Program-made: the position numbers and the translations under genes
The notes under the pieces: model-generated
The model's input: only the letters and a program-made list of their open reading frames with translations
Databases searched by the model: none
Told to the model about the DNA's origin: nothing
Part shown: positions 9,237-30,776 of the stretch, piece by piece
How positions within the stretch are numbered: position 1 is the first letter of the stretch
Layout of the letters: each line of letters opens with the position of its first letter
Source: Candidatus Palauibacter sp.
GTDB lineage: Bacteria; Gemmatimonadota; Gemmatimonadetes; Palauibacterales; Palauibacteraceae
Assembly: GCF_965222475.1 (NCBI RefSeq)
Contig: NZ_CBDCUB010000001.1
Coordinates: 1,002,982 to 1,066,981, forward strand
DNA length: 64,000 nt
Direction: 5' to 3'

Positions 9237-9322
9237 GTCTTCTCCTTCACGGCCGCGGGGTGGCTTCCACCTCCGCGAGTGCTTTTGCCACGGGGTCCCG
9301 CATGGTCCATCTTCCCACCCTT

Positions 9323-9396
9323 CGGGGCGTGGCGCAGTCCGGTAGCGCACCTGCTTTGGGAGCAGGGGGTCGCCGGTTCAAATCCGGCCGCCCCGA
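9323..9396 (+). tRNA. tRNA-Pro (anticodon TGG)
   Basis: CGGGGCG acceptor paired with CGCCCCG, D-arm GCGCAGTCCGGTAGCGC, anticodon loop TTTGGGA, T-arm GCCGGTTCAAATCCGGC, discriminator A. Confidence 0.85.
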
Positions 9397-10978: not shown

Positions 10979-10991
10979 CGCCGCGTCCCGC

Positions 10992-11195
10992 TCAGCATGT
11001 GGAATCCGCGTCGGCGGCCTGGGCCGTCTCCCACTCCCGCTGCTCCTTCAGCGCCATCTCGACCTCTCGCTCGCGCTGGCGCCGCCGGGCGCGGAAGATC
11101 CCGCCACCGATGACGACCAGGAGGAGGTACGGCATCGCCGCCATGAGGACGAACATCCACACGTATCCCGCCTGCTGGTCGGGCGTATGCTGCAT
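10992..11195 (-). CDS. small membrane protein (one TM helix + charged tail), possibly caa3-associated
   Basis: Start moved to ATG 11195 (MQHTPDQQAGYVWMFVLMAAMPYLLLVV...) to avoid overlap with ctaB. Confidence 0.3.
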   Translation of the reverse strand: MQHTPDQQAGYVWMFVLMAAMPYLLLVVIGGGIFRARRRQREREVEMALKEQREWETAQAADADSTC

Positions 11196-11272
11196 CTGGA
11201 GCGTCGCCTCGACGGCGTAGACATATGTGGCTGTAACGTTCAGCACGGGCTCGACGATGACGGCGATGTGAG

Positions 11273-12193
11273 TCAGACCTTGTCCATCACGAGGATGGCC
11301 ATCAGCAGTGGAAGATACAGGATGGAGGCCCGGAACAAACGCCTGGCCCGCGCCGCCGACGCCTCGCGACCGAACCGCAGCGCCGCCCACAGGAAGCCTC
11401 CGCCCAGAACGAGCGCGGCCGCGAAGTAGACGGGACCCGTGAGGCCGAGCACGCTCGGCATCACACTCACGGGGATCAGGGTGAGCGTGTACAGGACCGT
11501 CTGGCGCCGTGTCTGCCGCCCCCCGGGATCGCCGACCGAGAGCATGCGCAGCCCCGCCGCCCCGTAGTCATCGCGCAGCAGCCACGCGAGGGCGAGGAAG
11601 TGCGGCAGTTGCCAGACGAAGAGGATCCCGAACAGGACCCATCCGCCCGGGCCCAGCTCCCCCGTGGCGGCGGTCCAGCCTCCGAGGATCGGGAGCGCTC
11701 CCGGGACCGCCCCCACGACGGTCGAAAGCGAGTGTACCCGCTTGAGCGGCGTGTAGACGAAGTCGTAGGAGACGAACGTCGCGGCCGCGAGCACGGCCGT
11801 GACCGGATTGACCGCCACCGCCAGCCAGGCGATGCCCGCCGCGGCCAGGCCGCCCGAGAAGATGGCAGCGGGGAGCGTGTCGAGGCGCCCGGCCGGGAGC
11901 GGCCGGGAGCGGGTGCGGCCCATGAGGGCGTCCACGTCCCGCTCCAGCACCTGGTTCATCGCGCTCGTGCCGGCCGCCACCAGGGCGACCCCGATCATCG
12001 TGTGCGCGAAGAGGGCGAAGTCGAAGCTCACCGTGCCCAGGAGGAAGCCGGCCGCCGCGCTCGCCAGCACGAGCGCCGTGATCCGCGGCTTCGTGAGCTC
12101 GAGGTAGTCCTTCAGCGCCCTCCGGCCGACGCCGCGCGCCGCCGCGCCGCCGCGCGGCATTGCGGGAACCGTGGGGATGCTCTTCGCTTCCAA
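11273..12193 (-). CDS. ctaB: protoheme IX farnesyltransferase (heme O synthase)
   Basis: UbiA-family motifs YLELTKPRI, NQVLERDVDALMGRT, tail of caa3 cluster. Confidence 0.85.
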   Translation of the reverse strand: MEAKSIPTVPAMPRGGAAARGVGRRALKDYLELTKPRITALVLASAAAGFLLGTVSFDFALFAHTMIGVALVAAGTSAMNQVLERDVDALMGRTRSRPLPAGRLDTLPAAIFSGGLAAAGIAWLAVAVNPVTAVLAAATFVSYDFVYTPLKRVHSLSTVVGAVPGALPILGGWTAATGELGPGGWVLFGILFVWQLPHFLALAWLLRDDYGAAGLRMLSVGDPGGRQTRRQTVLYTLTLIPVSVMPSVLGLTGPVYFAAALVLGGGFLWAALRFGREASAARARRLFRASILYLPLLMAILVMDKV

Positions 12194-16702: not shown

Positions 16703-17167
16703 TCACTCCCTCCCTCGATCCTGCGCCCGGCGCACGAGAACGAGACCGAAGGCCCCCGTCAAGAGCATGGCCAGCAGCGGCGTGACCACCACCGTGCTCG
16801 ACGCCGGTGGTTCGAGGAGGACGTAGTACCATGTGCTCACCGAACTGCGCTTCCCGACCTCGGCGCTCGACCCATCCCACGCCTGAAACGCGATGGGCGT
16901 GGGCAGCCCCTCCGCGAAGTCCAAACCCTCGCTCTCGACCTCGATCGGGCGGCGCAGGTACAGCGTCCAGCGGCCCTCCTCCCAGGTCGCTTCCCCGCTC
17001 ACGGGATCTTCTTCGAGCGGCTCGACCGATTCGAGTCCCCGGCCGCGGCCGGCGCCGACTCCGCCCTCGGAGTCCCACGTCCAGAGGTAGACCGGGTTCC
17101 GCGTGTCCCCCATCAGGAAGTACGGGCGCTCCGTGCCTTCGGGCGGTTCGAACGGGAACTGGAGCAT
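16703..17167 (-). CDS. EB_dh/DOMON-like heme-binding domain fragment with C-terminal TM anchor; possibly the 3' part of the upstream cytochrome c gene
   Basis: 154-aa ORF starting at an ATG that overlaps the upstream stop; together with the C-terminal ~90 aa of the upstream ORF it makes one EB_dh-sized domain. Confidence 0.45.
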   Translation of the reverse strand: MLQFPFEPPEGTERPYFLMGDTRNPVYLWTWDSEGGVGAGRGRGLESVEPLEEDPVSGEATWEEGRWTLYLRRPIEVESEGLDFAEGLPTPIAFQAWDGSSAEVGKRSSVSTWYYVLLEPPASSTVVVTPLLAMLLTGAFGLVLVRRAQDRGRE

Positions 17168-18261
17168 CAGCGCGTCCGGGGGCGCATGGTCGGCGCGCCG
17201 GCGCTGTCGAGCGCGATCGGCTTCGCCCCGTCGAGGTCCAGCGCGGCGGTGATCTTGTCCTGCCACTCGTCCCAGGCCGGATCCGGGCTCTCCGACGGGT
17301 CGTTCCACTGCACCCGCAACGCGAGGTCGCTTCCATCGTGCAGCCCCTGCACCCAGAGGCCGTCCACCGTCGGCGCGAAGTTGCGCGGCACCTGGATGAT
17401 CTGGCCCGAGAGCGGGAAGTAGAACGGCTCGACGCCTTCCCACGCCTCCTCGGAGCCATCGGCCGGGAGCCCTCCCTCGGCGCGCCCCACGCGGATCACA
17501 TCGCGCAGCTGGGGCATCTCGCCCGGGCCCATCGAGGCGATGTAGTGCGCGAGCTGCCAGACCTCGTCCGGGGACACGACGCCCGAGTTCATGGCGTCGA
17601 TCGCCGATGGCATGGGGGTTCCGTCCAGCCCGGTCAGCATCCTGGTGTGTATGTCCTCGACGCTGCCGCCGCCGTTCAGATACCATGCCTCGGTGAGGTC
17701 GGCCGCGCGAATCGGGAGACCTCGCCAGTCCTCCAGCGTCGGCGCCGAGGTCCCGTCGCCGCGTCCCGACAAGCCGTGGCATTCCTCGCACAGCATGGTG
17801 AGGTACGCCGCCGCCCCCGCCTCGAGGGCCGCGGGACCGCCGCCGGGGTCCGACCCGAAGTCCAGCGGCTCGGGCGCGGGTCCCTGGCCGAAGAACCTCG
17901 AGAAGGTCTTGAGGTAGACGATGAGGTCGTCGATTTCGCCATCGGTGAGGTTCGGCCAGCCGGGCATCGTCGTGCCGGGGAGCCCGTTCTCGATCGCGGC
18001 CCGCATGTCCGCGTCCGTCGGGAGTTGCCCGCTCCCGGTCGTCCGGACCTGGTACAGGGCCTGGGTGAAGTCGCGGGGCCGCGGCAGCATGGACTCGGCG
18101 GCCGAGCCGTCCCCCTGCCCCGTCGCGCCGTGGCATTCCGCACACCAGCGGTCGTACACGAGCTTGCCCGCGGCGGCCGCGTCTTCCTGTCCCGCCAGCG
18201 CCGTCGCGCCTCCCGCGATGCACGTCAGGAGGACGATCCCCGTGAGACGCAGCGTCCTCAT
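17167..18261 (-). CDS. dihaem c-type cytochrome with C-terminal partial EB_dh-like domain
   Basis: Signal peptide MRTLRLTGIVLLTCIAGGATALA; two CxxCH sites (CAECHG, CEECHG); ATG 18261 overlaps upstream stop (ATGA). Confidence 0.7.
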   Translation of the reverse strand: MRTLRLTGIVLLTCIAGGATALAGQEDAAAAGKLVYDRWCAECHGATGQGDGSAAESMLPRPRDFTQALYQVRTTGSGQLPTDADMRAAIENGLPGTTMPGWPNLTDGEIDDLIVYLKTFSRFFGQGPAPEPLDFGSDPGGGPAALEAGAAAYLTMLCEECHGLSGRGDGTSAPTLEDWRGLPIRAADLTEAWYLNGGGSVEDIHTRMLTGLDGTPMPSAIDAMNSGVVSPDEVWQLAHYIASMGPGEMPQLRDVIRVGRAEGGLPADGSEEAWEGVEPFYFPLSGQIIQVPRNFAPTVDGLWVQGLHDGSDLALRVQWNDPSESPDPAWDEWQDKITAALDLDGAKPIALDSAGAPTMRPRTR

Positions 18262-19055
18262 TCGTGGCCCCCTTCCCCTTCTTCCTCCCACGTCCGCGGC
18301 GTGAATCCCGACTGCTCGTAGAGGTAGAGAATGACGGCCCAGATCTCTTCTTTCTCGAGGATCGGCTCCCACGCCGGCATGGCCGAATCCCACGGCGTCC
18401 CCTCGCGCGGCAGACCGGGTCCGCCCTTCGCGATGCGCCAGAACACGAAGCTCTCCGTGAGCTGCGGGAGGGCCCCCGAACTCGTGAAGTCGGCGGGGAC
18501 CGGGTTGAAGGCGGGCGCGAAGTGCCCCTGCCCGTCGAGCAGGTCGCCGTGGCAGGGCACGCAGTTGCGGACGTAGATCGCCTTGCCGACCTGCAGGTGC
18601 TCCTCCATCGAACCCTCGGAGCGGAGCGGGTTCTCGAGGCCCGTCAGCTCCATCGACTCGCCGCGGAAGGTGATCTGGTTCGGCGGCGCCGGGTGAATGG
18701 CGCGCAGCGTGGCCGGCGCGGCGTAGCTCGGCTTCACGTTCTGGTAGGCGAGCCAGCCGACCATGACCGGGAGCGCCACCATGAGGATTCCGCGCAGCGT
18801 CTTCCGGTCCCGGGCCACCATCGTGGTGCGGATCGGTTCGCGGAAGCTCTTCCAGCGCGCCTCGTCCGCGCTCATGTAGAGGAGGATGCCGACGAGCACG
18901 ATGAGCATGTACTCGAGGATGACCGAACTCGGCACCGGCGCGCTCGGCACGCCGATCAGCGGTAGCAGGTACCCGATCCCGTAATCGAGCGCCATATAGG
19001 ACGCGACCACGACGATCACGCCCTGCCAGAACGGATGAGCCGGAAATCGTCTCAT
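18258..19055 (-). CDS. membrane-anchored monohaem c-type cytochrome (3 TM + cyt c domain)
   Basis: Three N-terminal hydrophobic helices, then CVPCHG heme-binding site. Confidence 0.7.
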   Translation of the reverse strand: MRRFPAHPFWQGVIVVVASYMALDYGIGYLLPLIGVPSAPVPSSVILEYMLIVLVGILLYMSADEARWKSFREPIRTTMVARDRKTLRGILMVALPVMVGWLAYQNVKPSYAAPATLRAIHPAPPNQITFRGESMELTGLENPLRSEGSMEEHLQVGKAIYVRNCVPCHGDLLDGQGHFAPAFNPVPADFTSSGALPQLTESFVFWRIAKGGPGLPREGTPWDSAMPAWEPILEKEEIWAVILYLYEQSGFTPRTWEEEGEGGHE

Positions 19056-19912
19056 CGGCTCCCTCCCGTGCTGTCGGCCGGTGCCGCCGCACTGTCCGCC
19101 GCCGCGTCCGGGGTCTCACCCGTACCCTCCGCGGGGGCGGCAGCCCCTCCCGTCGCCAGGAAGTTCACCAGAGCGTCGAGTTCCGCGGGTGCCATCATCT
19201 GAGCCAGCGTCGGCGACATGGTACCGGCAAAGTCCCGGTATTCTTCGTTGATGCTCGCGTTCGGGTCGACGATGCTCTCCCGGATGAACGCGGGATCCCG
19301 GCCCTGCAGGTCCTCCAACGGCGGCGCGACCATCCCGCCCTGCCCGCCCAGGGCGTGGCAGGCGAGGCAACCCGTCATGGTGATCACCGCCATCACATCC
19401 ACCTGGCTCGGGTCCGTCACGACCGGCGCCGCGGGCGCCGCCGCGGCCGCGTCGTCGGCGGCCAGCGCGGCGGCGAAGTCGTCCGCGTTCACGGTGATCT
19501 CGCCCCCCTGCGCCTCCAGGAAGGCGACGAGCGTCCACAGCTCCGCCTGCGACAGGATCCGGCTCTGGTCGAGCATGATGGGCTCGAAGCCCTCCACGAT
19601 GTAGGAAAGCGGGCTGACGAGCGACTCCCACAGGTAGTCCTTGCAGCTCTGCCCCGGGACGCGCGTCTCGCACACCGTCCCCGCCACCCCGACGATGTCC
19701 GGGGCGCGGGTGCCGAGCCCGTGACACGCCGTGCAGCCGCCGACCCCGGCGTAGATGTCCTCGCCGATGGCCGCCAGTTCTTCGGGCGGCATGTCCGCGC
19801 TGAGCACGATCTCCTCGGGCACCGCCGACTGCACCTGCGGGATCACGTTCGCCACGAAGGTGAACACCGCCAGCGTCGCCACGACCGTGAACAGGATCTT
19901 CAGGTTCGTCAT
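19052..19912 (-). CDS. dihaem c-type cytochrome (signal-anchored)
   Basis: CTACHG and CLACHA motifs; N-terminal TM/signal MTNLKILFTVVATLAVFTFVANV. Confidence 0.7.
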   Translation of the reverse strand: MTNLKILFTVVATLAVFTFVANVIPQVQSAVPEEIVLSADMPPEELAAIGEDIYAGVGGCTACHGLGTRAPDIVGVAGTVCETRVPGQSCKDYLWESLVSPLSYIVEGFEPIMLDQSRILSQAELWTLVAFLEAQGGEITVNADDFAAALAADDAAAAAPAAPVVTDPSQVDVMAVITMTGCLACHALGGQGGMVAPPLEDLQGRDPAFIRESIVDPNASINEEYRDFAGTMSPTLAQMMAPAELDALVNFLATGGAAAPAEGTGETPDAAADSAAAPADSTGGSR

Positions 19913-21685
19913 CTATCCTCGCCTGTCCTGGTAGACCGACCGTTCGGCCAGCCCGCCGAGCCAGAAGATGAACCCGACGAGCGCGAAGAAGATGATCACG
20001 CAGATGCTGATCATCGTCGCCGCCGGGCCGAGCGCCGGCGTGAACGCCTGCTCGCTCGTGTCGCGGATGACCTCGTAGACGTGCCAGTGCTGCCGGATCC
20101 CGCTGCGGGCGAAGCCCATGAGCCCCATGAGCCAGGTGAACGTCACGGCGAGGATGAGCAGCGCGTACTGCGACCGCTCGGGCATCTGCCCCCAGCGGAT
20201 CTCGCCGCGGGACTTCGCGCCGCGGAGCATCGCCATGTCGAGGCCGATCACGAACAGGATCGTCGCCAGCACCGCCAGGACCTGGTAGACCGAGAACCCG
20301 ATGCGGACGATCGCGGTCACGAAGTAGCCGTACACGCCGTAGAAGACGACCACGATCGCGGCGACCGCGAAGGCCGCGCCCTGCAGCATGGTTCCGGCGC
20401 GCACCCATGGCACCACCGGATCCTTGTTCGCCCGCCGGTACATCAGAAACGACAGGAACGTCGTCAGGATCATCAGGTTCACGGCGGTGTTCTTGGCGCT
20501 CATCACGCCCAGCACCTGCAGGAAGGGGTGCCGGATCCCGCCCATGGCCGCGATCTCGTCGCGGTCGGCGATCATCGTGTTGGGCGTGGCCCACACGATC
20601 ACGCCGAGGACGAGCACGAGGAGCATCCACTTGATGTAGGGCTGGAAGCGCTCCGCGCCCGGGATCCTCCCCATCCCGACCCACAGGTAGTAGTTGCCGG
20701 CGAGGAAGAGGATGCCGATGAGGAAGGCCTGGATGATCCAGAGCCAGCTCATGAAGCCGCCCATCATCGTGATCCCCATCTGCTGGCTGAACTCGTAGAT
20801 CTCGCGGCCGAGGTAGTATCCGGCGAAGGGGAGGACGATGAGAGCGCCGATCGCGATCAGGTTGCCGGTGTAGCCCATCCAGTCGTAGTGGGCCCGCTCC
20901 TCGTCGGTCTTGCTCGTGAGGAACCGGTACGCCGCATAGGCGCCGACGATCGCGCCGCCGAAGACGACGTTGGCCAGGAGCCGGTGGATGTTGATCGGCA
21001 TCCAGGTCGCGTTGTTGATCGCGCTCCACAGCTGGACGGTCTGCGGCGCCGTGTCCACCGTGAGATCGGCCGGAGGGCTCATCATGTAGGTGAGCCAGCC
21101 GTTCGCGATGAACATGACGATCGTGCCCCACACGTTGAGCATGATCCCCAGGCACCAGTGGGCCTTCTTCGCCGCGCCCTTCTTCCACGCGTCCCAGCCG
21201 TAGTAGTACAGGTAGAGCGTGAAGGACTCGAGGAAGAACATGCCCGCGTACACCCACATCGACGGGGCGAAGACGGCCGTCAGGTACGCCCAGAAGCGCG
21301 GATAGAGGGTCGAGAGGAAGAAGACGAGGACCGCGCCCCAGATCGCCGTCGCGCTGTACGCCACGAGCAGGAGGCGGGTGAACTCCTTGGCGAGTTTGTC
21401 GTACTTCTCGTCGCCGCCGAACATCCCGATCGCCTCGATGACGACGGCGAACATCGGCACGCCGAGCACGAAGGCCGCGAACAGCAGGTGGAGCTGGGCC
21501 GCGATCCAGACCGCGCCGCGACGGTCGAGGCCCAGAAAGCTGAACTCGCCGTAGTCGGGCCCCGCGGCCTGCGCCAGCAGCGGCATCGCCACCACCAGCG
21601 CGAGGGCGGCGAGCACCGCGCCGCGGGTCATCCAGCGGAGCGGCCCGCGATCTCCCGCGAGCCTTCCGGACCGGTCGAGCGTCAT
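19913..21685 (-). CDS. cytochrome bd-family subunit I-like protein (CydA-like, no Q-loop, no CydB partner seen)
   Basis: N-terminus aligns to CydA helix 1 (HLLFAAFVLGVPMFAVVIEAIGMF vs MYHFLFVPLTLGMAFLLAIME); FFLESFTLYLYYYGWD vs CydA FFLESTFVGLFFFGWD; C-terminal G.RQ.W..EV vs GRQPW; ATG 21685 preceded by GGAGAGAAG. Confidence 0.65.
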   Translation of the reverse strand: MTLDRSGRLAGDRGPLRWMTRGAVLAALALVVAMPLLAQAAGPDYGEFSFLGLDRRGAVWIAAQLHLLFAAFVLGVPMFAVVIEAIGMFGGDEKYDKLAKEFTRLLLVAYSATAIWGAVLVFFLSTLYPRFWAYLTAVFAPSMWVYAGMFFLESFTLYLYYYGWDAWKKGAAKKAHWCLGIMLNVWGTIVMFIANGWLTYMMSPPADLTVDTAPQTVQLWSAINNATWMPINIHRLLANVVFGGAIVGAYAAYRFLTSKTDEERAHYDWMGYTGNLIAIGALIVLPFAGYYLGREIYEFSQQMGITMMGGFMSWLWIIQAFLIGILFLAGNYYLWVGMGRIPGAERFQPYIKWMLLVLVLGVIVWATPNTMIADRDEIAAMGGIRHPFLQVLGVMSAKNTAVNLMILTTFLSFLMYRRANKDPVVPWVRAGTMLQGAAFAVAAIVVVFYGVYGYFVTAIVRIGFSVYQVLAVLATILFVIGLDMAMLRGAKSRGEIRWGQMPERSQYALLILAVTFTWLMGLMGFARSGIRQHWHVYEVIRDTSEQAFTPALGPAATMISICVIIFFALVGFIFWLGGLAERSVYQDRRG

Positions 21686-23094
21686 CGCTTCTCTCCTCGC
21701 CCCACGCCCCGCCGCCTCCGGGCGAAGAAGGGCATTCGCTTGGAGAAGTCCACCGGCATGGCGCGGCGGACCTCCTGCATCACATCGAGCGTCACTTCGG
21801 CGTGGCCGTGCTCGCGGGCGAACGTCTCGACCCGCTCCGCCACGACCCCGCGCACGAAACTCGGGATGGCGTTCAGCCGCGCCTCGGCGTCCGGACTCCA
21901 GCGGAGACGGACCTCGGCGGCGGAACCATACGTGACCTCGCGAGGCGGCTGGAGGGCTTCGGCGACCCCGGGGGCCGGCTCGTAGGCGCAGGCCGGATCG
22001 GGGCCGAGGAAGTCGCCGTCCACCGCGTAGGCGCGCGCCCGGCAGCCGCCGCACAGCGTCCGGTATTCGCAGCGCCCGCACTTGCCGCCCAGTTCCCCCT
22101 CGCGCAGGAGGCGAAACACGGTCGCCTCGCGCCAGATTTCCCGGAAGGAGGTTGTCGCGAGATCCCCCGCCACCTCCGGCATGTAGGGGCAGGGCGTCAC
22201 CTTCCCCTCGGGCGTGATGCGGCAGTACTGCACGCCGCACGGGCAGCGGGTCCGGTAGTTGAGCAGCGGGGACTCCGGGTCGCGCTCGTACACGTGGCGC
22301 ATGAGCTGCGGCTGGCACTTCGAGCGGATCATGAGCCGACCCCGGTACTCGCGCTGGAGTTCGGCGAGCCGGGCCACGAGTTCGTCGTTCTCCCCGGGCG
22401 CGAGGCCGCGCATCCCTTCGCCCCGGCCGGTCTCGACGAGGAAGTAGACGTTGAGGCAGACCGCGCCACGGTCGTCCGCCCACGCCGCCATGGCGTCGAG
22501 TTCGTGGCGGTTCCCGCGCGTGACCGTGAACTGGATGAGGAAATCGAGCCCGTGCGCCCCCAGCCGGTCGACGGCGGCGAGCGTGTCCTCGAGCGCGCCC
22601 TCCCCGTGCCGGAAGCGGTCGTGATAGCGCGGATCGAGGGAGTCGACGCTCAGCGCCACCCCCTGCACCCCCGCGTCCATGAGGGACCGGATGCGCTCAT
22701 CGGTGAGCCCGGTCCCGTTCGTCCCCACGGTCACGGTCGCACCGCGCTCCGAGGCATGGGCCGCGATCTCCTCGAGGTCGGAGCGGACGAGCGGCTCTCC
22801 TCCGCTGAGGATGAGGAGAGGAGACGGGTTCACCTCGAGGATCTGATCGATGATGGCGCGGCAGGCGGAGGTGTCGAGTTCGTTCTCGGCTTGATGCCAG
22901 GCACCGGCCGAGATGTAGCAGTGGGCGCAGGCGAGGTTGCAGCGGCGCGTGAGGTTCCAGGCGATGACGTGCGGCAGCGCGGCATCCGGTCCGTCGTGGG
23001 GAGAGGCGGCGGCCGGAGCCCCCGCCCACAGGGCCCCCGGCGCAGCGGAAGGACGTTGCGCCACAGCTTCCGCGCCCCGCAACGCCTCGATCAC
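21682..23094 (-). CDS. radical SAM/SPASM protein of the NirJ/AhbC/AhbD tetrapyrrole-modifying family, with C-terminal PCP_red-like domain
   Basis: IAWNLTRRCNLACAHCY (CxxxCxxC), LSGGEPL, TNGT, C-terminal Cys-rich SPASM region CGRCEY..CGGCRARA, ending PDPACAYEP like NirJ; extra C-terminal domain EVRLRWSPDAEARLNAIPSFVRG.V...VE.FARE.G. GTG start at 23094 overlaps upstream stop (GTGA). Confidence 0.7.
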   Translation of the reverse strand: MIEALRGAEAVAQRPSAAPGALWAGAPAAASPHDGPDAALPHVIAWNLTRRCNLACAHCYISAGAWHQAENELDTSACRAIIDQILEVNPSPLLILSGGEPLVRSDLEEIAAHASERGATVTVGTNGTGLTDERIRSLMDAGVQGVALSVDSLDPRYHDRFRHGEGALEDTLAAVDRLGAHGLDFLIQFTVTRGNRHELDAMAAWADDRGAVCLNVYFLVETGRGEGMRGLAPGENDELVARLAELQREYRGRLMIRSKCQPQLMRHVYERDPESPLLNYRTRCPCGVQYCRITPEGKVTPCPYMPEVAGDLATTSFREIWREATVFRLLREGELGGKCGRCEYRTLCGGCRARAYAVDGDFLGPDPACAYEPAPGVAEALQPPREVTYGSAAEVRLRWSPDAEARLNAIPSFVRGVVAERVETFAREHGHAEVTLDVMQEVRRAMPVDFSKRMPFFARRRRGVGRGEKR

Positions 23095-25280
23095 GCCTCG
23101 CGCGACCCCGGTTCCGAATCCTGTGCCGCGAACTTCTCCACGGCGGCCTGTGCCTCCTCGGGGGAGACCAGCTTGAAGTCGACGGGACAGTCCGCCGCCT
23201 GTTGCTCGATGTCGCGGATCGGACAGCGCGTGACGCCGGAGGCCTTCGCCTCCTCGATGAAGCGCTTCATCTCCTCGCTCATCCCGTCCACGCCGGCGGC
23301 TTCGGCCCGGGCCTGTTTCGCCTTCAGCTCGTTGAACATCACGAGCATCGTGTCGAGATCGAACTCGTCCGCCGCGATCATGGCGTCCTTGTTCTCGTCC
23401 ATGACCGGCGTCGTGACGCGCCACATCTCCTGATCGCGGGCGAAGCGTTCGACCGTATTGCGCGCGAGGGGTCGCGCGATGAGCGGCACGCGGCCGAGGC
23501 GTTCGAACGCCTCGCGGGTCCACACGATCGGGTCCGCCGCAGTGCGATCGCGCGGGATCCGGTTGTCCGTGACGGGGCACTTCGCCATCACCGGCAGCGG
23601 CGCATCGAAGACATCGTCGTCGCTCGTTTCGACGACCGTCCGCTTCATCGCCTCGCCGGCCTTGACCTCCGCGAGGGCGAGTTCCTCCGCGTCTCCGATC
23701 CCCATCACGAGCTGCATGTGGGTCGGCAGGAGCTTCTTGATCGCCTCGTCCAGCCGCTCGTTCGTGACGACGGGCAGTTGATCCCGGTTCCAGAGTTCGG
23801 GCTTCGCCCCGTTCGGATCCCCGCCGTTCGCGGCGTCCACGACATCCGATATCGACGGGGCCGCGCCTCCGGCCAGGGCCTCGCGGGCCACCTTCGCGGT
23901 CCCTTTCGCCTCCGTGCGGTATCCCTTCTCATCCTTCGGGTTCGGCACGAACGCCGCGGCGTAGCGGCTCCCGGGCCCGTAGTGCTCGAGGACGAACTCC
24001 TCGACGGCCTTGCGCGCGATCCCGAGCGCGAAGGGCGGCACGCGCAGGATCCTGACCTCGGCCTCGGGCGCCCACTCGAGCCCGGCCTCGCCGTCCTCCT
24101 CGATCCACGGGATCTCCTCGGGCCGTACGTTCTCCGTCCCGATGAGGAGGATGTTCGCATCCGCGAGGTGGACGAGGTTGTCGGCCTGCGAGCCGATGTC
24201 CGTGCCTTCGATCCGGTGCGATCCGTGGCGGGCGATGATGAGCAGCGACGGGTCGATCTCCTCCGCCCACTTCAGCATCACGTCGAAGGGCTTCCCGATG
24301 AGGACCTGGGTCTCGACCTCGACATCGGGATGTTCGCTCGCCATCACCTCGGCCCGCTTGATGTTCGCCTTGCAGAGGCGGAGCAGGCCCTTGTCGATGA
24401 TGTTGTTATGCAGCTCTTCCTGTTCCTCGAACTTGAACACCTTCGAGGCCTGCACCGAGAGCACGTCCTTGATGTTGTGGAACACGACGTGGTGGTACTG
24501 GACGTCGAAGGCGCTCCCGATGTAGAGCTTCGCCCCGTATTTCCGCGCCATCTCGAGCGCGATCCGCAGCCCCTTGTAGGCGTAGGCCGAGCCGTCCACG
24601 CCGATGAGCCACTTCCCGCCCTCGAGGGGTCGGTCGTTGCGGACGATGAGCGCGTCCTTCCGGAGGCCCCGCAGCGCCCGGGCCACGACGCCGCCGAGCC
24701 GACTGCGCTCCTGGCGGCCGAGGCCGTGGGCCCCGATGGCCACGAGGTCGTAGTCGCGGCCGGAGGTCCCCGCGAGCTTGTCCTCCTGCTCCTCGTCCTC
24801 CGCCACGAGACGGCCGTTCTCGCCCAGACGGACGTCGGCGCGCTGCTTCTCGCTCCCGTCGTAGTTGTGGGCGATGTTGGGATCGAACCCGATCAGGCTC
24901 GGGAGGCGTCCGCCGCCCCGGTTCGCCTCATTGATGATCTCCTCGTAGTTGATCCCCTCGAGGAGCTGCCGGGTGATGGTGACCCCCGCCTCGCTGCAGC
25001 GCCGGTGCAGCTGGTCGAGGAAGCTGTCGGAGATGAGCTGGAGCCCCTTCTCGATCAGCTTGTCGTGGATCTTCCGCTGTCGGCGGATCTCGGCCGGTTC
25101 CTGGAACTGGGCCGGGAGCCCGATCTCGAGCTGGCGAAAGCGGATGTCGTGCAGGCGCGCAGCGTAGACGTGTGAGCCCGTGATCCGGCCCTCCGAACGG
25201 GCGCAGATCTCTATGGCCCGGTCCACGGCCCAGTCGGACTCGCGCGAATTGTCGACCGGGACGAACAGTTCTCGATACAT
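23091..25280 (-). CDS. tandem universal-stress-protein (UspA) domains + C-terminal PCP_red-like domain protein
   Basis: Two Usp-like alpha/beta ATP-binding-type modules; C-terminal IVWTREAFERLGRVPLIARPLARNTVERFAR PCP_red-like; start preferred at ATG 25280 (GGAG 5 nt upstream) rather than GTG 25316. Confidence 0.6.
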   Translation of the reverse strand: MYRELFVPVDNSRESDWAVDRAIEICARSEGRITGSHVYAARLHDIRFRQLEIGLPAQFQEPAEIRRQRKIHDKLIEKGLQLISDSFLDQLHRRCSEAGVTITRQLLEGINYEEIINEANRGGGRLPSLIGFDPNIAHNYDGSEKQRADVRLGENGRLVAEDEEQEDKLAGTSGRDYDLVAIGAHGLGRQERSRLGGVVARALRGLRKDALIVRNDRPLEGGKWLIGVDGSAYAYKGLRIALEMARKYGAKLYIGSAFDVQYHHVVFHNIKDVLSVQASKVFKFEEQEELHNNIIDKGLLRLCKANIKRAEVMASEHPDVEVETQVLIGKPFDVMLKWAEEIDPSLLIIARHGSHRIEGTDIGSQADNLVHLADANILLIGTENVRPEEIPWIEEDGEAGLEWAPEAEVRILRVPPFALGIARKAVEEFVLEHYGPGSRYAAAFVPNPKDEKGYRTEAKGTAKVAREALAGGAAPSISDVVDAANGGDPNGAKPELWNRDQLPVVTNERLDEAIKKLLPTHMQLVMGIGDAEELALAEVKAGEAMKRTVVETSDDDVFDAPLPVMAKCPVTDNRIPRDRTAADPIVWTREAFERLGRVPLIARPLARNTVERFARDQEMWRVTTPVMDENKDAMIAADEFDLDTMLVMFNELKAKQARAEAAGVDGMSEEMKRFIEEAKASGVTRCPIRDIEQQAADCPVDFKLVSPEEAQAAVEKFAAQDSEPGSREA

Positions 25281-25542
25281 GACGCTCCGCTGGGTGGCGT
25301 GCTCCGACCGGCTCACGATCCTCCGGCCATTGTTCGCTGGGCCGTGCGATCCGGGCGTGCGCGGGGCGTCAAGATCGGTCGCGGACAGGGATTCCGGCGA
25401 CGTGGCTCCACGGTTTTCGGGATCGCCCGGAGGTCCCGGGCCTCCGCTTTTGCGCCAAGAAGTTGCGCGAGCCCTCCGGGAAAGTCAAACGAGCCCCGGG
25501 CGCCGCGAAGGCGCGGCGAGGCGCGGGTGCCGGAGGACCCCG

Positions 25543-26250
25543 TCACGGAGTCCGGGGCCAGCGAAGACGGCGACTCCAGATGGTCGGGAAGGCCGCCGCG
25601 CCGAGCGTGACCACGAGCACGACGAGGAGGCTCCGAACCCACGCAGACGGGTCCGCGGGAGCCGCCCCCACGCCGGCGCCGAGGGCCGCCCGCAGGGGCA
25701 TGTAGGGATTCCAGGCGGCCGCGATCTCGTTCCAGCCCGGAACCGGCGTTCTGAAGAAGCCCGCGAGGTGGAGGAGGAGCAGGGAGAGCGCGGCGGAAGC
25801 GAGGGCCGCCTCGGCCAGCGAGCGGACGGCGGCGGCGACGAGGGGGCCGATGAGGTTCGCGAACCAGAGCGCGACGAGGGTGGCGATGAGAACGACGGGC
25901 CCGGCCCCGAGCCCGCCGGCGGACCAGAGCAGCACGAGCAGCACCGGCAGGAGTTGCGCCGTGTCGATGGCGGTGCGCGCCAGCGTACGCTCGAGGAGCC
26001 AGCGGGGCGCGGGGTAGCCGGCGCGCAGCACTTCGTCGAGCCAGCCGTCGCGCGCATCCCGGACGGCCGGAATCGCCGAGCCGAACGCGCCGAAGAAAAC
26101 GAGGAAGACGCCGAATACGGCGACCCGGTGCGGAGCGGCGGCCTCGCTGAGGGCGACCGGCGTGAGCAGGACGAGCGGGACCGCGATGTTCCACGCGAGG
26201 AGCCGTCGCCGCCGGAGGGCCGAGCGCCACGCGAGACGCCAGACCGTCAC
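25543..26250 (-). CDS. ABC-2 permease, CcmB-like (heme exporter protein B family)
   Basis: 6 TM; CcmB signature VRDARDGWLDEVL (compare E. coli FRDDLQDGSLEQL); GTG 26250 overlaps ATPase stop. Confidence 0.55.
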   Translation of the reverse strand: MTVWRLAWRSALRRRRLLAWNIAVPLVLLTPVALSEAAAPHRVAVFGVFLVFFGAFGSAIPAVRDARDGWLDEVLRAGYPAPRWLLERTLARTAIDTAQLLPVLLVLLWSAGGLGAGPVVLIATLVALWFANLIGPLVAAAVRSLAEAALASAALSLLLLHLAGFFRTPVPGWNEIAAAWNPYMPLRAALGAGVGAAPADPSAWVRSLLVVLVVTLGAAAFPTIWSRRLRWPRTP

Positions 26251-27245
26251 GCGCCCTCCTCCTCGAGCCGCCGGCCCGCGAGGATGAGGAACGCGTCGGC
26301 GAGGGTCGGTTCGCGGACATCGACCGACGTCACGGAAGCGCCCCCTCGAAGGACCCAGGTGAGGGCCTCGGGGAGCACGGTGCGCGGGTCCTCGACCTCG
26401 AGGATCACGGCGCCCTCGCGCCACGCCGCCGAGAGGACGCCGGACGGAGGCGGGGGGCATGTCTCGACGTCCGGGAGGGTGGAACCCGCGAAACGGATCT
26501 CCACGCGGGGACGGACGCCGACCCGCTGGAGGAGGCGGGCCGGCGTGTCCACCGCCTCGCACCGACCATCGACGATGAACCCCACCCGGTCGCAGTGCGC
26601 CGCCGCGAAGGCGGGGTCGTGCGCGGAAAGCACGGTGGTACGGCCCATCTCGCCCTGACCGGCGAGGGCCTCTGCGAGGAGGGCGCGGCCGGCGGGGTCG
26701 AGTCCGGCCAGCGGCTCGTCGAGCAGCAGGAGCCGCGCCTCGGCGGCGAAGGCGACCGCGAGCGCGAGCCGCCGCCGCATCCCGCTGGAGTAGGCGCCGG
26801 CCGGCCGTTCCGCGTCCCCCGCCAGTCCGAAGCGCGCAAGCCAGGTCGTGGCCTCGGCGCGGGCCTGCACAGGCGAGGCGCCCCGCAACTCGAGCAGGAC
26901 GGCCGCGTTTTCGCGCCCGGTGAGCCAGGGGCGGAAGACCGGCTGGTCCGGCACGAACCAGCGGTCGAGGGTGCCGTCGACCTCCCGCGCGAGGCGGAGA
27001 CCGGGCGCACCGTCCCCGGCCAGGAGCCGGAGGAAGGTCGATTTTCCCGACCCGTTGGGCCCGAGGAGTCCGAGTCGTTCACCGTCGCGTACCTCGAGCG
27101 AGAGGCCGCGGAGCGCGGGACTCCCATCCGGATAGGTCCAGGCGAGGGCCTCTGCGGCGACGAGCGGGTGACCCCCGCGCGGGCCGCGAGTTTCCGCGCC
27201 CTCAGCGGGGTCGGGCCCGGCGCGGGCGGGCCGGCTGCGGTTCAC
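26247..27245 (-). CDS. ABC transporter ATP-binding protein, CcmA-like with ~120-aa C-terminal extension
   Basis: Walker A GPNGSGKST, signature YSSGMRRRL, Walker B LLLLDEP. Confidence 0.7.
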   Translation of the reverse strand: MNRSRPARAGPDPAEGAETRGPRGGHPLVAAEALAWTYPDGSPALRGLSLEVRDGERLGLLGPNGSGKSTFLRLLAGDGAPGLRLAREVDGTLDRWFVPDQPVFRPWLTGRENAAVLLELRGASPVQARAEATTWLARFGLAGDAERPAGAYSSGMRRRLALAVAFAAEARLLLLDEPLAGLDPAGRALLAEALAGQGEMGRTTVLSAHDPAFAAAHCDRVGFIVDGRCEAVDTPARLLQRVGVRPRVEIRFAGSTLPDVETCPPPPSGVLSAAWREGAVILEVEDPRTVLPEALTWVLRGGASVTSVDVREPTLADAFLILAGRRLEEEGA

Positions 27246-27514
27246 GGGATGATCTCGACTCCGTCCTCCCAGACGGTGATCGCATCGACCGGGCAGGACG
27301 CGCAGGCTTCCACGAAGCGCTTTCTCGACGCGTGCTCGGGCGTCGTGAACACCGCCACACCGTCCTCGTCGAGATCGAACGCCTCCGGGGCCTCCTCTAT
27401 GCAGTCACCGAACCCCACACACAGATCCCGGTCGATGACGGCGCGCAGGCCGTGCACCTCGCGTTCGACCATCGGGTCCGTCACCGTTTCTCCGCCCTCC
27501 GCCGTCATCGCCAT
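27242..27514 (-). CDS. small ferredoxin (single [3Fe-4S]/[4Fe-4S] type)
   Basis: 90 aa; ID.D.C.GFGDC...AP..F.....G ... CASCPVDAI pattern. Confidence 0.65.
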   Translation of the reverse strand: MAMTAEGGETVTDPMVEREVHGLRAVIDRDLCVGFGDCIEEAPEAFDLDEDGVAVFTTPEHASRKRFVEACASCPVDAITVWEDGVEIIP

Positions 27515-27520
27515 GGGCCG

Positions 27521-27961
27521 CTACATCCCCTCCAGTCCGAGATCCGTGCGCGCCCGATCCATGACGGCCGGCGTCATCTCCTCGATCCCCCGTTCCCGTG
27601 CATATTCCGTGTAGATCTTCTTCACCATTCCGCGTACGAACGAAGGCACGTGCCCGAGGCGCTCGACCGCGTCCACGCTCCAGCGGACGGTCGAGGGACG
27701 GGTCGGGAGTGGCGACTCGAACGCCTCGTCTCGTCCCGATGCCACGCCGGTTCGGACCCCCTCGAGGTTCGCCTCCGGCACGGTCCGGCCGCCGACCTTC
27801 ACGCCGAGCGAACTCACGAGCTGCGTCTCCATCGGATTGGCCAGCATCGCGGTCTTCCGGCCGCAGGCAGGACAGCGGAACACGGCGGCCATCGTGCCAT
27901 CGCCGGGCACGGCCCGCTCCTCGAAGCTCATCTGCCGGTCGCAGTCGACGCAGAGGAACTT
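27521..27961 (-). CDS. zinc-ribbon + PCP_red-like domain protein
   Basis: N-terminal C..C...C..C (CVDCD ... CPACG); C-terminal TVRWSVDAVERLGHVPSFVRGMVKKIYTEYARERGIEE matches the PCP_red-like domains of the radical SAM and USP proteins. Confidence 0.5.
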   Translation of the reverse strand, partial: KFLCVDCDRQMSFEERAVPGDGTMAAVFRCPACGRKTAMLANPMETQLVSSLGVKVGGRTVPEANLEGVRTGVASGRDEAFESPLPTRPSTVRWSVDAVERLGHVPSFVRGMVKKIYTEYARERGIEEMTPAVMDRARTDLGLEGM

Positions 27962-28857
27962 CATGTTCCTTCTCCGGCTCCCGCGGGGCGCAGCTTCGCG
28001 GCCAACTCCGCGAGCCGATCCGCCTCCGGGCCCGCGTCGGCAAACCACGCATCGAGGGTCCCTTCGTCCGCGGCGGTAGCCAGGCGGCGGTCGAACGGGA
28101 TGCGGGCGAGGAGCGGGATGCCGAAGCGGCGCGCGAGATCCTCGCCGGCGCTCCCCGCGTGCAGGGGGGCGAGGGCTCCGCATTCGTCGCAGCGTGCGCC
28201 GGCCATGTTCTCGACCACGCCGTGGACCCGGATGCCGCGCGTTACCGCCAGGTCCAGCGAGCGGGCCACGGCATCCCGCGAGGCGGCGCTCGGGATCGTC
28301 ACCGCGAGAGCACCCGCAAGGCCGGGGACGAGCCCGTGCAGTTCCGCGAGGCGCTGGGTGCCGGGCGGCAGGTCGACGAGCAGCGTGTCCAGGGGTCCCC
28401 AGGCCACATCCGACAGGAATTCGCGAACGGCCCCCCGCTCCTGGGCGCCCCGCCACACGAAGCCCGCGTCGGCGGCGTCCTTCCACGTGAGCGCACGGTC
28501 CGGCTCGAGCAGGAGCGCCATCGACATGAGGCGGATCCCCGCCGGCGACACGGCCGGTTCGAGTCCATCCGGGCCGTCGACGAGAGGCCCCGGTTCGACG
28601 CCGAGCAGGCCCGCGGCGCTGGGGCCGTTGAGGTCCGCGTCGATCAAGCCCACCCGCTCGCCGCGACGGGCCAGGGCCGTCGCGAGGAGAGCCGCAAGGA
28701 GGCTCTTCCCCACCCCGCCCTTGCCGCTCATCACGGCCACGACCCGTGACACGGACGCGAGCCGGGCGGCCAACCGCTCGTCCTGCGCCGCGATCTGGTC
28801 GGGCAGTTCGGAGCGGAGTTCGTCCACTTCGTGGTAGGTGCGGATTCCGGGACTCAT
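27961..28857 (-). CDS. apbC: Mrp/NBP35-family Fe-S cluster carrier ATPase
   Basis: Deviant Walker A SGKGGVGKS, CDECG-type C-terminal Cys pair; 3' end overlaps next start. Confidence 0.8.
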   Translation of the reverse strand: MSPGIRTYHEVDELRSELPDQIAAQDERLAARLASVSRVVAVMSGKGGVGKSLLAALLATALARRGERVGLIDADLNGPSAAGLLGVEPGPLVDGPDGLEPAVSPAGIRLMSMALLLEPDRALTWKDAADAGFVWRGAQERGAVREFLSDVAWGPLDTLLVDLPPGTQRLAELHGLVPGLAGALAVTIPSAASRDAVARSLDLAVTRGIRVHGVVENMAGARCDECGALAPLHAGSAGEDLARRFGIPLLARIPFDRRLATAADEGTLDAWFADAGPEADRLAELAAKLRPAGAGEGT

Positions 28858-28979
28858 CGCGCGGCAAGCTCCCACGGGGTCGGCAGGGGGTCAACCGCCG
28901 TGCATCGGCGAAGTTTCGGCCCCGGTCCCGTTATCGTACGATGTCGAGGTCGGTCGGAGCTATCCAAAACGGACATCGC

Positions 28980-29186
28980 ATGTCGATCATCGGCTTTCAC
29001 CGCTTCCTCATCGCCACGGCCATCGTCTTCTGCGCGGTATTCGCCGCGTGGGAGTTCCGTATCTTCTCCGCCAGCGGCGGCCTCGGGCCCCTCGCCCTCG
29101 GCGTCCTGTTCGCCCTCGCGGCGGCGGCGCTGGCCTATTACCTGGCCAACCTGGCCCGCTTCCTGAACAGGGAAACGCTTCAGTAG
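28980..29186 (+). CDS. small 2-TM membrane protein, unknown
   Basis: 68-aa ORF MSIIGFHRFLIATAIVFCAVFAAW...; weak support. Confidence 0.25.
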   Translation: MSIIGFHRFLIATAIVFCAVFAAWEFRIFSASGGLGPLALGVLFALAAAALAYYLANLARFLNRETLQ

Positions 29187-29191
29187 GCGCC

Positions 29192-29827
29192 GTGCGCGTG
29201 GAAAGTCGGGAGAATGCCGGGGCACGACGGCCGGTCGGGCTGTATCTCGCCGGGGTCATCTTCCTCCTCGTCATCATCGTCGTCGTCGCGGGCTCTTTCG
29301 TACGGCCCGACCCGCTGACCTTCGTGCCGACTCCGGTCGTTCCCCGGCCTCCTGCGGAATATTTCGTGGTGGACACCGTGACGGTCGACGCACGCGACGG
29401 CTCCGAGTGGGTCTATTTCGACTTCGACAAGGGGAGCGCGGTCGCCGGGCCGCTGGCGGGCTGGGACCTCGCGGTCAACCGGTACCACATCATCGTGAAC
29501 GGGGGGGCGGGATACGCGGGGGCCGGCGGGGCCATCGCCACGAGCGTGCCGTGGGCGGCCGTGACCGAGGCGCCCGCGGGCGGCTACGCGACCACCGAGG
29601 GAACGGTCGACGAGGGGGCCGCCACGCCGGGGCTCGAGCACTGGTACCAGTACGGGTTCTTCTCCCACCTCCTCGAACCGAAGGATGAGACGTACGTCAT
29701 CCGGACGGCGGAGGGGCGCTACGCCAAGCTCAGGATCCTCAGCTACTACTGCCCGCAGGCGACGCCCGGTTGCATGACCCTCCTGTACGGGTACCAGGGG
29801 GACGGGACGCGCCGCCTCACGGGCTGA
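29192..29827 (+). CDS. signal-anchored HmuY-like (putative heme-binding) beta-sandwich protein
   Basis: N-terminal anchor GLYLAGVIFLLVIIVVV; motifs WDLAVNRYHIIVNGG ... RYAKLRILSYY...LLYGYQ reminiscent of the HmuY family; start (GTG 29192/29198) uncertain. Confidence 0.35.
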   Translation: MRVESRENAGARRPVGLYLAGVIFLLVIIVVVAGSFVRPDPLTFVPTPVVPRPPAEYFVVDTVTVDARDGSEWVYFDFDKGSAVAGPLAGWDLAVNRYHIIVNGGAGYAGAGGAIATSVPWAAVTEAPAGGYATTEGTVDEGAATPGLEHWYQYGFFSHLLEPKDETYVIRTAEGRYAKLRILSYYCPQATPGCMTLLYGYQGDGTRRLTG

Positions 29828-30776
29828 GCCGGCGGGCGCGCTCGACGAGGGCGGCCGCGCCCGCTTCCAGCATGCGTTCCGCCAGGCACCGACCCACGTG
29901 GGCCGCTTCGGACGCCGGCCCCGACGCGGCATCCTCGATCGGCGGGCCACCGCCCACGTCATAGACCGCGGCTTCGAGCCGCAGCCCGTCCCCGGTTCGC
30001 CGGGCGCGGGCGGCGATGGGCACGCGGCAGCCCCCTTCGAGGGCAGCAAGGAGGGCCCGTTCGGCCGTCGCCTCGACCCTCGCGCCCGGGTCGTCCAGCG
30101 CCCGGACCCGGGCCATCACGCGCTCGTCGCCCGCGCGGCATTGCAGGCCGAGCGCGCCCTGCCCCGGCGCGGGAAGCCATCCCTCGTCGAGCACGGCCGC
30201 GCCGCGCGGCCAGAGGCGGAGCCGCCGCAGCCCCGCGGCGGCCAGAACCAGCGCCTCGAAGGCACCCTCCTCGAGTTTCCGCAGGCGCGTGTCGACGTTG
30301 CCTCGTACGGGCCTCGGTTCGAAGTCCGGCCGGTACGCCCGGAGTTGGGCGGCGCGCCGCAGGGACGACGTGCCGACGCGCGCGGCGGCGGGCAGGCGTT
30401 CGAGTGCGTCCAAACCGCGCTCCGGAGCATCGACCGGCGCGAACGAATCCCGAACCACCACGACATCGCGCGGGTCCTCGCGCTCCGGCACCGCCCCGAG
30501 ATCGAGTCCCTCGGGCGGATCCACGGGAAGGTCCTTCAGCGAATGCACGGCGACGTCGATGCGCCCCTCCCGAAGCGCCCGCTCGAGGTCTTCCGTGAAC
30601 AGCCCTTTGCCCCCGATCGCCGGGAGGGGGGTCTTCCGGTCGCGATCCCCGGCCGTGGAGATGAAGTCGTAGTCGACGGACAGGTCGGGCCAGCGTTCGC
30701 GCAGCCGCTCCCCGACCCACTTGGCCTGCGCGCGAGAAAGCGGAGACCGCCGGGCTCCGACGACCAGTTGCCTCAC
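29817..30776 (-). CDS. hemC: hydroxymethylbilane synthase (porphobilinogen deaminase)
   Basis: VGTSSLRR, cofactor-binding Cys region GGCRVPIAA. Confidence 0.85.
   Translation of the reverse strand: MRQLVVGARRSPLSRAQAKWVGERLRERWPDLSVDYDFISTAGDRDRKTPLPAIGGKGLFTEDLERALREGRIDVAVHSLKDLPVDPPEGLDLGAVPEREDPRDVVVVRDSFAPVDAPERGLDALERLPAAARVGTSSLRRAAQLRAYRPDFEPRPVRGNVDTRLRKLEEGAFEALVLAAAGLRRLRLWPRGAAVLDEGWLPAPGQGALGLQCRAGDERVMARVRALDDPGARVEATAERALLAALEGGCRVPIAARARRTGDGLRLEAAVYDVGGGPPIEDAASGPASEAAHVGRCLAERMLEAGAAALVERARRLSP

Follow-up and report, generated by a model that had tools for sequence, protein, structure and literature searches.

The stretch of DNA analyzed here, hereafter the window, comprises 64,000 nucleotides (nt) of contig NZ_CBDCUB010000001.1 of Candidatus Palauibacter sp. 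(Gemmatimonadota; positions 1,002,982 to 1,066,981), with a G+C content of 70% and, at the protein level, 96% identity to complete Candidatus Palauibacter sp. chromosomes. Seven co-directional genes occupy positions 21682-28857 of its minus strand, directly upstream of a gene for a CydA-like protein (19913-21685, Cyt_bd_oxida_I), exactly as a previous sequence-only reading of the window had described. In the order of their transcription they encode an ApbC/Mrp-type P-loop Fe-S carrier ATPase (27961-28857, PF10609), a protein of 147 residues that combines a zinc ribbon with the PCP_red domain (27521-27964, PF08369; hereafter ZnR-PCP_red), a single-cluster ferredoxin (27242-27514, Fer4_13 and Fer4_15), a DrrA/NodI-like ABC transporter ATPase (26247-27245, ABC_tran), an ABC-2 type permease (25543-26250, PF01061 ABC2_membrane), a protein of 729 residues with tandem universal stress protein (USP) domains and two PCP_red domains (23091-25280, Usp and PCP_red; hereafter USP-PCP_red) and a radical SAM/SPASM/PCP_red enzyme of 470 residues (21682-23094, Radical_SAM, SPASM and PCP_red), hereafter abbreviated as rSAM. 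Pfam matches bear out the labels that the earlier reading had given to the ApbC/Mrp, zinc-ribbon, ferredoxin, tandem-USP and radical SAM proteins, whereas its CcmA-like and CcmB-like labels for the transporter genes have to be replaced with DrrA and ABC-2. The analysis below indicates that the genes for ApbC, ZnR-PCP_red, USP-PCP_red and rSAM are the core of a cassette that usually, if not always, accompanies a particular type of bd-like oxidase operon, and that the cassette may serve in the maturation of this oxidase.

Gene boundaries were refined from the sequence and from start contexts that are conserved in relatives. Overlaps of four nt connect the genes for ApbC and ZnR-PCP_red (ATGA), ferredoxin and ATPase, ATPase and permease (GTGA, combining the stop of the former with the start of the latter), USP-PCP_red and rSAM (GTGA), and rSAM and the CydA-like protein (ATGA). 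The ATG start of ApbC at 28857 has GGGAG before it and the GTG start of the permease at 26250 has GAGGAGGAGG upstream; for USP-PCP_red we favor the ATG, the GGAG ribosome-binding site of which is kept in orthologues, over a GTG at 25316. A gap of 262 nt (25281-25542) separates the permease from USP-PCP_red and contains, on the minus strand, the promoter-like motif TTGACT-N17-CAACTT (25460-25488). This motif was read from the sequence and is surrounded by GTTTGACTTTCC...GCAACTTC, which is kept upstream of USP-PCP_red in Palauibacter-like loci; a consensus promoter/terminator scan, which gave nothing useful, did not flag it, and an Rfam scan of 16.0-31.5 kb of the window returned no element. The motif suggests a separate promoter for a unit of USP-PCP_red, rSAM and the oxidase. 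Given this gap and its conserved motif, the genes are probably organized in two transcription units, the second of which probably runs from USP-PCP_red through rSAM into the oxidase genes.

The CydA-like protein has 590 residues, about 13 hydrophobic segments in a crude scan and no CxxCH motif, and its match to Cyt_bd_oxida_I (PF01654) is limited to the N-terminal part; no CydB is present among the neighbors of its gene. Downstream on the same strand follow three cytochrome genes (16703-19912; Cytochrom_C, Cytochrome_CBB3 and EB_dh) for a di-heme cytochrome c, a membrane-anchored cytochrome c and a cytochrome c with an EB_dh-like domain, and then genes for a CarboxypepD_reg protein, the cytochrome c oxidase (COX) series COX2-COX1-COX3-COX4 and heme O synthase. 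Several cytochromes c with an EbdC homologue constitute the operon signature of OR-N2 (Murali, Gennis and Hemp, bioRxiv 10.1101/2021.01.16.426971, supplementary file 1). By this signature the present operon fits that of an OR-N2-type cytochrome bd-like oxidase, since its CydA homologue equally has neither CydB nor a heme c motif, has a comparably large number of helices (about 13 vs. about 14) and has several cytochromes c and an EbdC-like subunit encoded after it. The difference is that the OR-N2 description of that study makes no mention of genes for rSAM, USP, PCP_red or ApbC proteins; radical SAM and universal stress proteins are absent from its text and supplements. The third cytochrome gene (16703-18260, minus strand) shifts frame at 17142-17178 relative to its orthologue in L001 (numbers with L designate the loci compared below), which is one open reading frame (ORF) with approximately 94% DNA identity; the orthologues in L020 and L027 are also single ORFs, of 534-551 residues. 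The frameshift may reflect an indel introduced by the assembly or else a genuine pseudogene.

The conservation of this arrangement was followed in two samples of loci and counted over the loci that were long enough. The first sample was anchored on rSAM with one genome per GTDB species and contains the best 80 of 477 stretches that encode a relative, nearly all from Gemmatimonadota, in which all proteins of the window were located by tblastn, while the second contains 80 metagenome loci anchored on the divergent USP-PCP_red of L052, a member of a Thermoanaerobaculia-like clade that will be called the second clade. Among rSAM-anchored loci, USP-PCP_red is found upstream of rSAM in all 69 and the CydA-like gene lies directly downstream of it in 72 of 73, the sole exception being L052 from Thermoanaerobaculia, in which the cassette instead has the oxidase genes upstream of it. 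ApbC and ZnR-PCP_red are each present in 63 of the 64 Gemmatimonadota loci, the ferredoxin in 62 and the pair of ABC transporter genes in 41 (it is missing in 23). In the second clade the order is CydA-like, two cytochromes c, cytochrome c/EB_dh, USP-PCP_red, a weakly GNAT-like protein, ApbC, ZnR-PCP_red and rSAM; the CydA-like gene occurs in 22/22 loci, ApbC and ZnR-PCP_red in 11/15 each and rSAM in 9/15, with neither ferredoxin nor ABC pair in any of the 15. Both clades retain the three cytochromes after the CydA-like gene.

The cassette was found in at least six lineages that bear names in the sources, namely Gemmatimonadota, Thermoanaerobaculia, Nitrospinota, Ca. Binatia, Nitrosomonadales and Dehalococcoidia, including about a dozen contexts beyond Gemmatimonadota and the second clade. 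Its order varies considerably among these contexts. L166 (Ca. Binatia) has cytochrome c/EB_dh and, further along, USP-PCP_red and rSAM; in L168, rSAM and USP-PCP_red are divergent from cytochrome c, cytochrome c/EB_dh and the CydA-like gene; L171 shows the series USP, rSAM, CydA-like, cytochrome c, cytochrome c and EB_dh; and in L174 and L175 a COX cluster precedes rSAM, USP-PCP_red, ApbC and PCP_red, with the CydA-like gene next in L174 (the contig of L175 ends earlier). The Nitrospinota loci L163, L172 and L173 present cytochrome c, DUF420, ApbC, PCP_red, USP-PCP_red and rSAM, with the cassette of L172 (5899-12416) and L173 (466-6983) preceded by a small cytochrome c and a protein with a weak Pfam match to DUF420; their rSAM carries three PCP_red repeats in L172 and L173. 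Finally, L164 from Nitrosomonadales combines lactonase-type N2O reductase, cytochrome c, USP-PCP_red, rSAM and a HemY-type porphyrinogen oxidase. Because the arrangement was found again in 80 genomes at species level and in 80 metagenome loci, it is not due to chance, and the synteny with CydA-like genes that the earlier reading had predicted for relatives is strong, extending to rearranged orders in other phyla. What did not survive is the notion that all seven genes constitute one functional unit: the ABC pair is dispensable in Gemmatimonadota, absent from the second clade and found in no other lineage sampled. Since both this pair and the ferredoxin are lineage-specific across the contexts, the conserved unit consists of ApbC, the small PCP_red protein, USP-PCP_red and rSAM with its PCP_red domain. 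This four-gene cassette lies usually, not always, beside an OR-N2 operon.

Some local variations accompany these patterns. The gene between USP-PCP_red and ApbC in the second clade (L083-L162; 6724-7665 in L052) encodes a protein of about 300 residues with a weak GNAT match and is present in 14 of 15 loci, and L052 has a HepT-like toxin gene inserted ahead of rSAM (9363-9962). In L065 (2283-18111), two paralogous sets of CydA-like and cytochrome genes, with 54% and 79% identity to those of the window, flank a single pair of USP-PCP_red and rSAM. Four Longimicrobiales loci without the ABC pair (L034, L037, L044 and L071) have a stretch of approximately 700-800 nt separating ZnR-PCP_red from USP-PCP_red, in which no ORF of at least 50 residues is supported by G+C content at third codon positions (GC3); this long gap may be a decayed remnant of the ABC pair or a long leader.

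One component of the cassette is a radical SAM enzyme whose identity of 62-70% across Gemmatimonadota and Thermoanaerobaculia indicates that it is highly constrained. Its motif CNLACAHC (CX3CX2C) and the auxiliary-cluster cysteines of the SPASM domain are invariant in 15 aligned orthologues. The top NCBIfam models are NirJ2 and AhbD with 276 bits each, below their equivalog cut-off of 500, followed by TIGR04053 (251 bits), by NirJ, NirJ1 and AhbC (156-176 bits) and by peptide maturases (153 bits at most). When 1.84 billion cluster representatives were searched with rSAM, 938 matches with E<=1e-30 were obtained, the best full-length ones of which all combine radical SAM and SPASM with one to four PCP_red repeats. 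Among representatives devoid of PCP_red, the nearest comprise a true NirJ2 with 533 bits (more than the cut-off), AhbD-like proteins (404-472 bits) and an AhbD-AhbA-AhbB fusion. In a neighbor-joining tree of 110 core sequences and 329 columns, the enzymes with PCP_red form one clade beside, not inside, the AhbD/NirJ2-like representatives. These results agree with the earlier placement of the protein in the tetrapyrrole-related NirJ/Ahb family, in which it is closest to AhbD and NirJ2 by both NCBIfam scores and nearest representatives.

The other members of the cassette have recognizable domains in unusual associations, three of the cluster proteins (ZnR, USP and rSAM) carrying PCP_red, an independently folding helical domain of ~50 residues that is known elsewhere only from the C-terminus of BchB/ChlB, the subunit that reduces protochlorophyllide. 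The ApbC-like protein matches ParA/NUBPL (PF10609) with 194 bits in Pfam and, below the respective cut-offs, MrpORP (201 bits) and ApbC (121 bits) in NCBIfam; its sequence holds the P-loop GKGGVGKS and the C-terminal CDEC (CxxC) typical of NUBPL/ParA proteins. An Fe-S carrier thus stands alongside rSAM as the sequence-only reading had maintained, and so does a ferredoxin in Gemmatimonadota, with Pfam matches to both Fer4_13 and Fer4_15. ZnR-PCP_red, named 'PCP reductase family protein' by NCBI, has a PCP_red match of 47 bits (PF08369) and four invariant N-terminal cysteines (CxxC...CxxC). The C-terminal domain of its AlphaFold2 model matches the nuclear magnetic resonance structures of PCP_red 2KRU and 2L09 and the ChlB chain 2YNM_D in a Foldseek search of the PDB, which confirmed the PCP_red fold and retrieved no functional analogue.

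USP-PCP_red matches Usp over two stretches (96 bits) and PCP_red also over two, and its orthologues, 68-100% identical, are all named just 'universal stress protein' in databases. In the AlphaFold2 model (mean predicted local distance difference test score 65.8), the USP domains are modelled confidently and the C-terminus poorly, with its cysteine region unresolved. Three Cys-Pro motifs of this protein (AKCPVTD, TRCPIRD and ADCPVDF, with cysteines 568, 686 and 698 in the numbering of the 729-residue protein) are present in 70/70 Gemmatimonadota orthologues examined, at a fixed spacing of 118 and 12 residues and with the consensus xCP[VYHF], RCP[IV]RD and CPVD[FL]. The second clade mostly misses these motifs and has instead, elsewhere in the protein, an invariant CxxC-x11-CxxC ribbon. 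We had considered the motifs as possible heme regulatory motifs and dropped this idea in view of their scarcity in the second clade, so that they are not used here as evidence of heme binding; a lineage-specific metal site seems more likely from their distribution. An analogy with USP in the activation complex of methyl-coenzyme M reductase was not borne out by the pertinent paper and was likewise abandoned.

Genes related to tetrapyrroles are found near the cassette both in the window and elsewhere. In L164, the HemY-type porphyrinogen oxidase that directly follows rSAM scores 246 bits with TIGR00562 (cut-off 98). The region concerned (906-11493) has clade III lactonase-type N2O reductase and cytochrome c on one side of USP-PCP_red and rSAM and the HemY-type gene on the other, with genes for DAHP synthase and for a BtuF-like binding protein beyond the latter. 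The DUF420 gene beside the cassette in Nitrospinota may be counted among these neighbors as well. About 1 kb upstream of the cassette in the window, hemC is encoded on the plus strand (29817-30776) and is shared by 26/58 rSAM-anchored loci. Between this gene and ApbC, divergent from the latter, positions 28977-29827 of the plus strand contain a membrane-anchored HmuY-like protein (PF14064, 63 bits), conserved in 44/58 rSAM-anchored loci, as well as a two-helix membrane ORF of about 69 residues that has no Pfam match. Genes of ahbA, ahbB, ahbC or of nir heme d1 synthesis were seen neither in the annotated parts of the window nor in the sampled loci, and the annotated ORFs of the window between 40 and 52 kb include no further heme genes. 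The literature found does not settle the heme pathway of Gemmatimonadota.

On these bases we propose that the PCP_red cassette could be devoted to the maturation of the adjacent OR-N2-type oxidase, probably by acting on heme, a reading for which our confidence is evenly balanced and of which the CydA-like oxidase would be the probable client. From family resemblance and gene neighborhood, we infer that the substrate of rSAM is heme or a heme precursor. As a sister lineage of the propionate-decarboxylating AhbD and NirJ2, rSAM would perform SAM-radical chemistry on an iron tetrapyrrole, with two possible outcomes: the conversion of coproheme into heme b for the OR-N2-type oxidase independently of O2 and H2O2, or a further modification of side chains that would produce a special heme for this oxidase. 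The HemY-type neighbor in L164 and hemC in the window fit the former option. ApbC would load or repair the three Fe-S clusters of rSAM, which in Gemmatimonadota would receive its reducing electron from the ferredoxin, while the PCP_red domains would either dock rSAM and its two partners together or pass on a common ligand. Translational coupling of USP-PCP_red, rSAM and the CydA-like gene would then link the supply of the cofactor to the synthesis of the oxidase. A bolder version of the same proposal, in which the cassette is a heme-maturation system of multiple phyla whose AhbD-sister enzyme makes the catalytic heme of OR-N2 without O2 or H2O2, either by decarboxylating coproheme or by a new modification of heme side chains, and PCP_red is a portable domain for porphyrin hand-off or docking that the enzyme shares with two chaperone-like partners, is tentative and to us rather doubtful. 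Oxygen-independent decarboxylation of coproheme is considered a step 'yet unknown' in the coproporphyrin-dependent pathway (PMC10965808).

Several observations weigh against a heme-directed unit devoted to this oxidase. With 276 bits against a cut-off of 500, rSAM remains far below the AhbD and NirJ2 equivalogs, its tree is a rough neighbor-joining reconstruction without support values, and AhbD-like SPASM enzymes include lipid-modifying enzymes; owing to such scores and relatives, family resemblance does not fix the substrate. The annotated parts of the window (3.9-39.4 kb and 40.3-52 kb) revealed neither ahbA, ahbB or ahbC nor genes for ferrochelatase or chdC, and the literature search gave no stated role for the PCP_red domain, even in DPOR, the protochlorophyllide oxidoreductase that operates in the dark. 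Linkage also has its gaps: rSAM is not adjacent in 6/15 loci of the second clade, and no CydA-like gene lies within 10 kb of the cassette in Nitrospinota L172 and L173 (L163 extends over only 5.6 kb) or in Nitrosomonadales L164. Moreover, genes of aa3-type COX are frequent neighbors of the cassette, and therefore its client could be another respiratory enzyme; copper chaperone genes are likewise frequent in its vicinity.

Among the alternatives, the one that best withstands the evidence is that rSAM is a protein-modifying maturase, which would cross-link the CydA-like protein, a cytochrome or ZnR-PCP_red acting as scaffold, or would equip it with a protein-derived cofactor. PCP_red would then be a recognition domain comparable to the recognition element (RRE) of ribosomally synthesized and post-translationally modified peptide (RiPP) systems, and the sharing of one domain by the enzyme and its partners is indeed reminiscent of RRE logic. 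SPASM radical SAM enzymes are mostly maturases of peptides or proteins, and the solved structures closest to rSAM in a PDB sequence search are PqqE (best) and SkfB, the set searched containing no AhbD structure; in the second clade, moreover, the small ZnR-PCP_red stands right before rSAM, at times in two copies. Yet the models of peptide maturases score well below those of AhbD and NirJ2, the closest relatives in sequence space are tetrapyrrole enzymes and a HemY-type gene adjoins rSAM in L164. Pfam found no RRE/PqqD domain in the cluster proteins. The intergenic gaps examined have no GC3-supported ORF of at least 50 residues, shorter ORFs not having been screened, and consequently offer no candidate for a precursor peptide. 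rSAM does not cluster with RiPP enzymes, an outcome that, together with the failure to see a precursor ORF of such length, upholds the earlier assignment. We thus regard the maturase explanation as unlikely.

A second alternative, of still lower probability, has the cassette carry out no cofactor chemistry for the oxidase; it would be a regulatory and Fe-S repair unit for low oxygen or stress, or would modify another small molecule such as a quinone or lipid, and would share no more than its regulation with the respiratory genes. A regulatory role would suit the USP domains, which are characteristic of regulons for hypoxia and stress, the Crp/FNR-type regulator ahead of the cassette in L163, the sigma-54 regulators nearby and the N2O reductase and COX genes next to the cassette; the lipid modifiers among AhbD-like enzymes would suit another substrate. 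Such a loose association is harder to reconcile with the 65-70% identity that rSAM and USP-PCP_red maintain across phyla, which implies a constrained enzymatic role, with the translational coupling to the CydA-like gene and with a linkage that has been kept through repeated rearrangement.

The earlier model, in which all seven genes would modify heme and a CcmAB-like exporter would deliver it to the oxidase and cytochromes, has become very improbable, for even if the genes are co-directional and partly overlapping in the window, the ABC pair is kept between cassette genes in most Gemmatimonadota loci and the EB_dh-like heme b domain, probably periplasmic by its inferred location, would need heme outside the cytoplasm, the pair is DrrA-like and plain ABC-2 without CcmB signal, fast-evolving and often missing. 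The best NCBIfam match of the ATPase is the DrrA subfamily (131.6 bits), and its scores with the CcmA models TIGR01189 (81.3 bits, cut-off 131.6) and PRK13538 (82 bits, cut-off 195) remain clearly lower than required; the permease matches PF01061 ABC2_membrane alone, with no CcmB (PF03379) match even at E<=5 and no match in NCBIfam. The two proteins retain 30-50% identity where cassette proteins keep 65-70%, and no ccm genes are present among the window ORFs scanned. By these scores the pair is a generic DrrA/ABC-2 exporter and, its grouping with CcmAB having been set beforehand as a test, the heme-export part of the sequence-only reading falls. The resemblance to System I is confined to an ABC ATPase and a six-helix-type permease near cytochrome genes; CcmA equivalog score, CcmB domain and ccmC-H are all wanting, and the pair is not conserved with the cluster. 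This ABC-2 transporter is a lineage-specific passenger outside the proposed mechanism. To our knowledge, CcmAB itself has not been established as a heme exporter.

Returning to the proposed heme-directed unit, its parts can be compared with known systems. rSAM shares with AhbD and NirJ2, the known families giving the highest scores, the same fold class with CX3CX2C and SPASM cysteines, but it falls in a clade of its own, which one to four PCP_red repeats at the C-terminus define, and is always paired with USP-PCP_red, usually also with ApbC and a small PCP_red protein; furthermore, AhbD and NirJ2 are found in heme-synthesis operons of anaerobes, whereas the operons that harbor rSAM are oxidase operons and belong to aerobic or microaerobic bacteria. 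With DPOR the cassette has in common the helical PCP_red domain of about 45-60 residues, the same as in BchB/ChlB by sequence and predicted fold, and the combination of a tetrapyrrole enzyme, here a presumptive one, with a P-loop Fe-S ATPase of the Mrp/NifH/MinD superfamily. It differs from DPOR in having no nitrogenase-like BchN/BchB core, matches to the BchB models being confined to their last ~60 positions, in having an ApbC that is not an equivalog of BchL/NifH and in carrying PCP_red on rSAM, USP and zinc-ribbon proteins. The PqqE-PqqD and MftC-MftB systems similarly consist of a SPASM radical SAM enzyme and small partners, with a domain common to enzyme and partners in this comparison; here, however, no PqqD/RRE domain and no precursor peptide were found, and the corresponding model scores are lower.

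No description of the cassette was found in the literature searched, and as a combination of known parts into a radical SAM system of cofactor maturation it appears to be unreported. Databases give its proteins generic names, and thousands of proteins currently carry no label other than 'universal stress protein', 'PCP reductase family protein' or 'radical SAM protein'. Gemmatimonadota, Acidobacteriota, Nitrospirota and other groups widely possess bd-like oxidases of the OR-N type, which have been proposed as terminal oxidases of environmentally important bacteria, for which an accessory cassette translationally coupled to the catalytic subunit provides a concrete way into the questions of cofactor and assembly. 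Should rSAM turn out to decarboxylate coproheme without O2, it would supply the missing step of the coproporphyrin-dependent pathway; should it produce a modified heme, it would open a new branch of tetrapyrrole chemistry. Either outcome would provide the first function for PCP_red outside DPOR.

Further genes were noted in the window. Beyond hemC in the upstream direction, the opposite strand encodes a thioesterase and an Mrp antiporter. Further away, the minus strand carries a gene for a protein of 1080 residues that combines a TLC ATP/ADP-transporter region with HEAT repeats and a cyclic-nucleotide-binding domain (6135-9377), and another for the selenocysteine elongation factor SelB (47154-49070).

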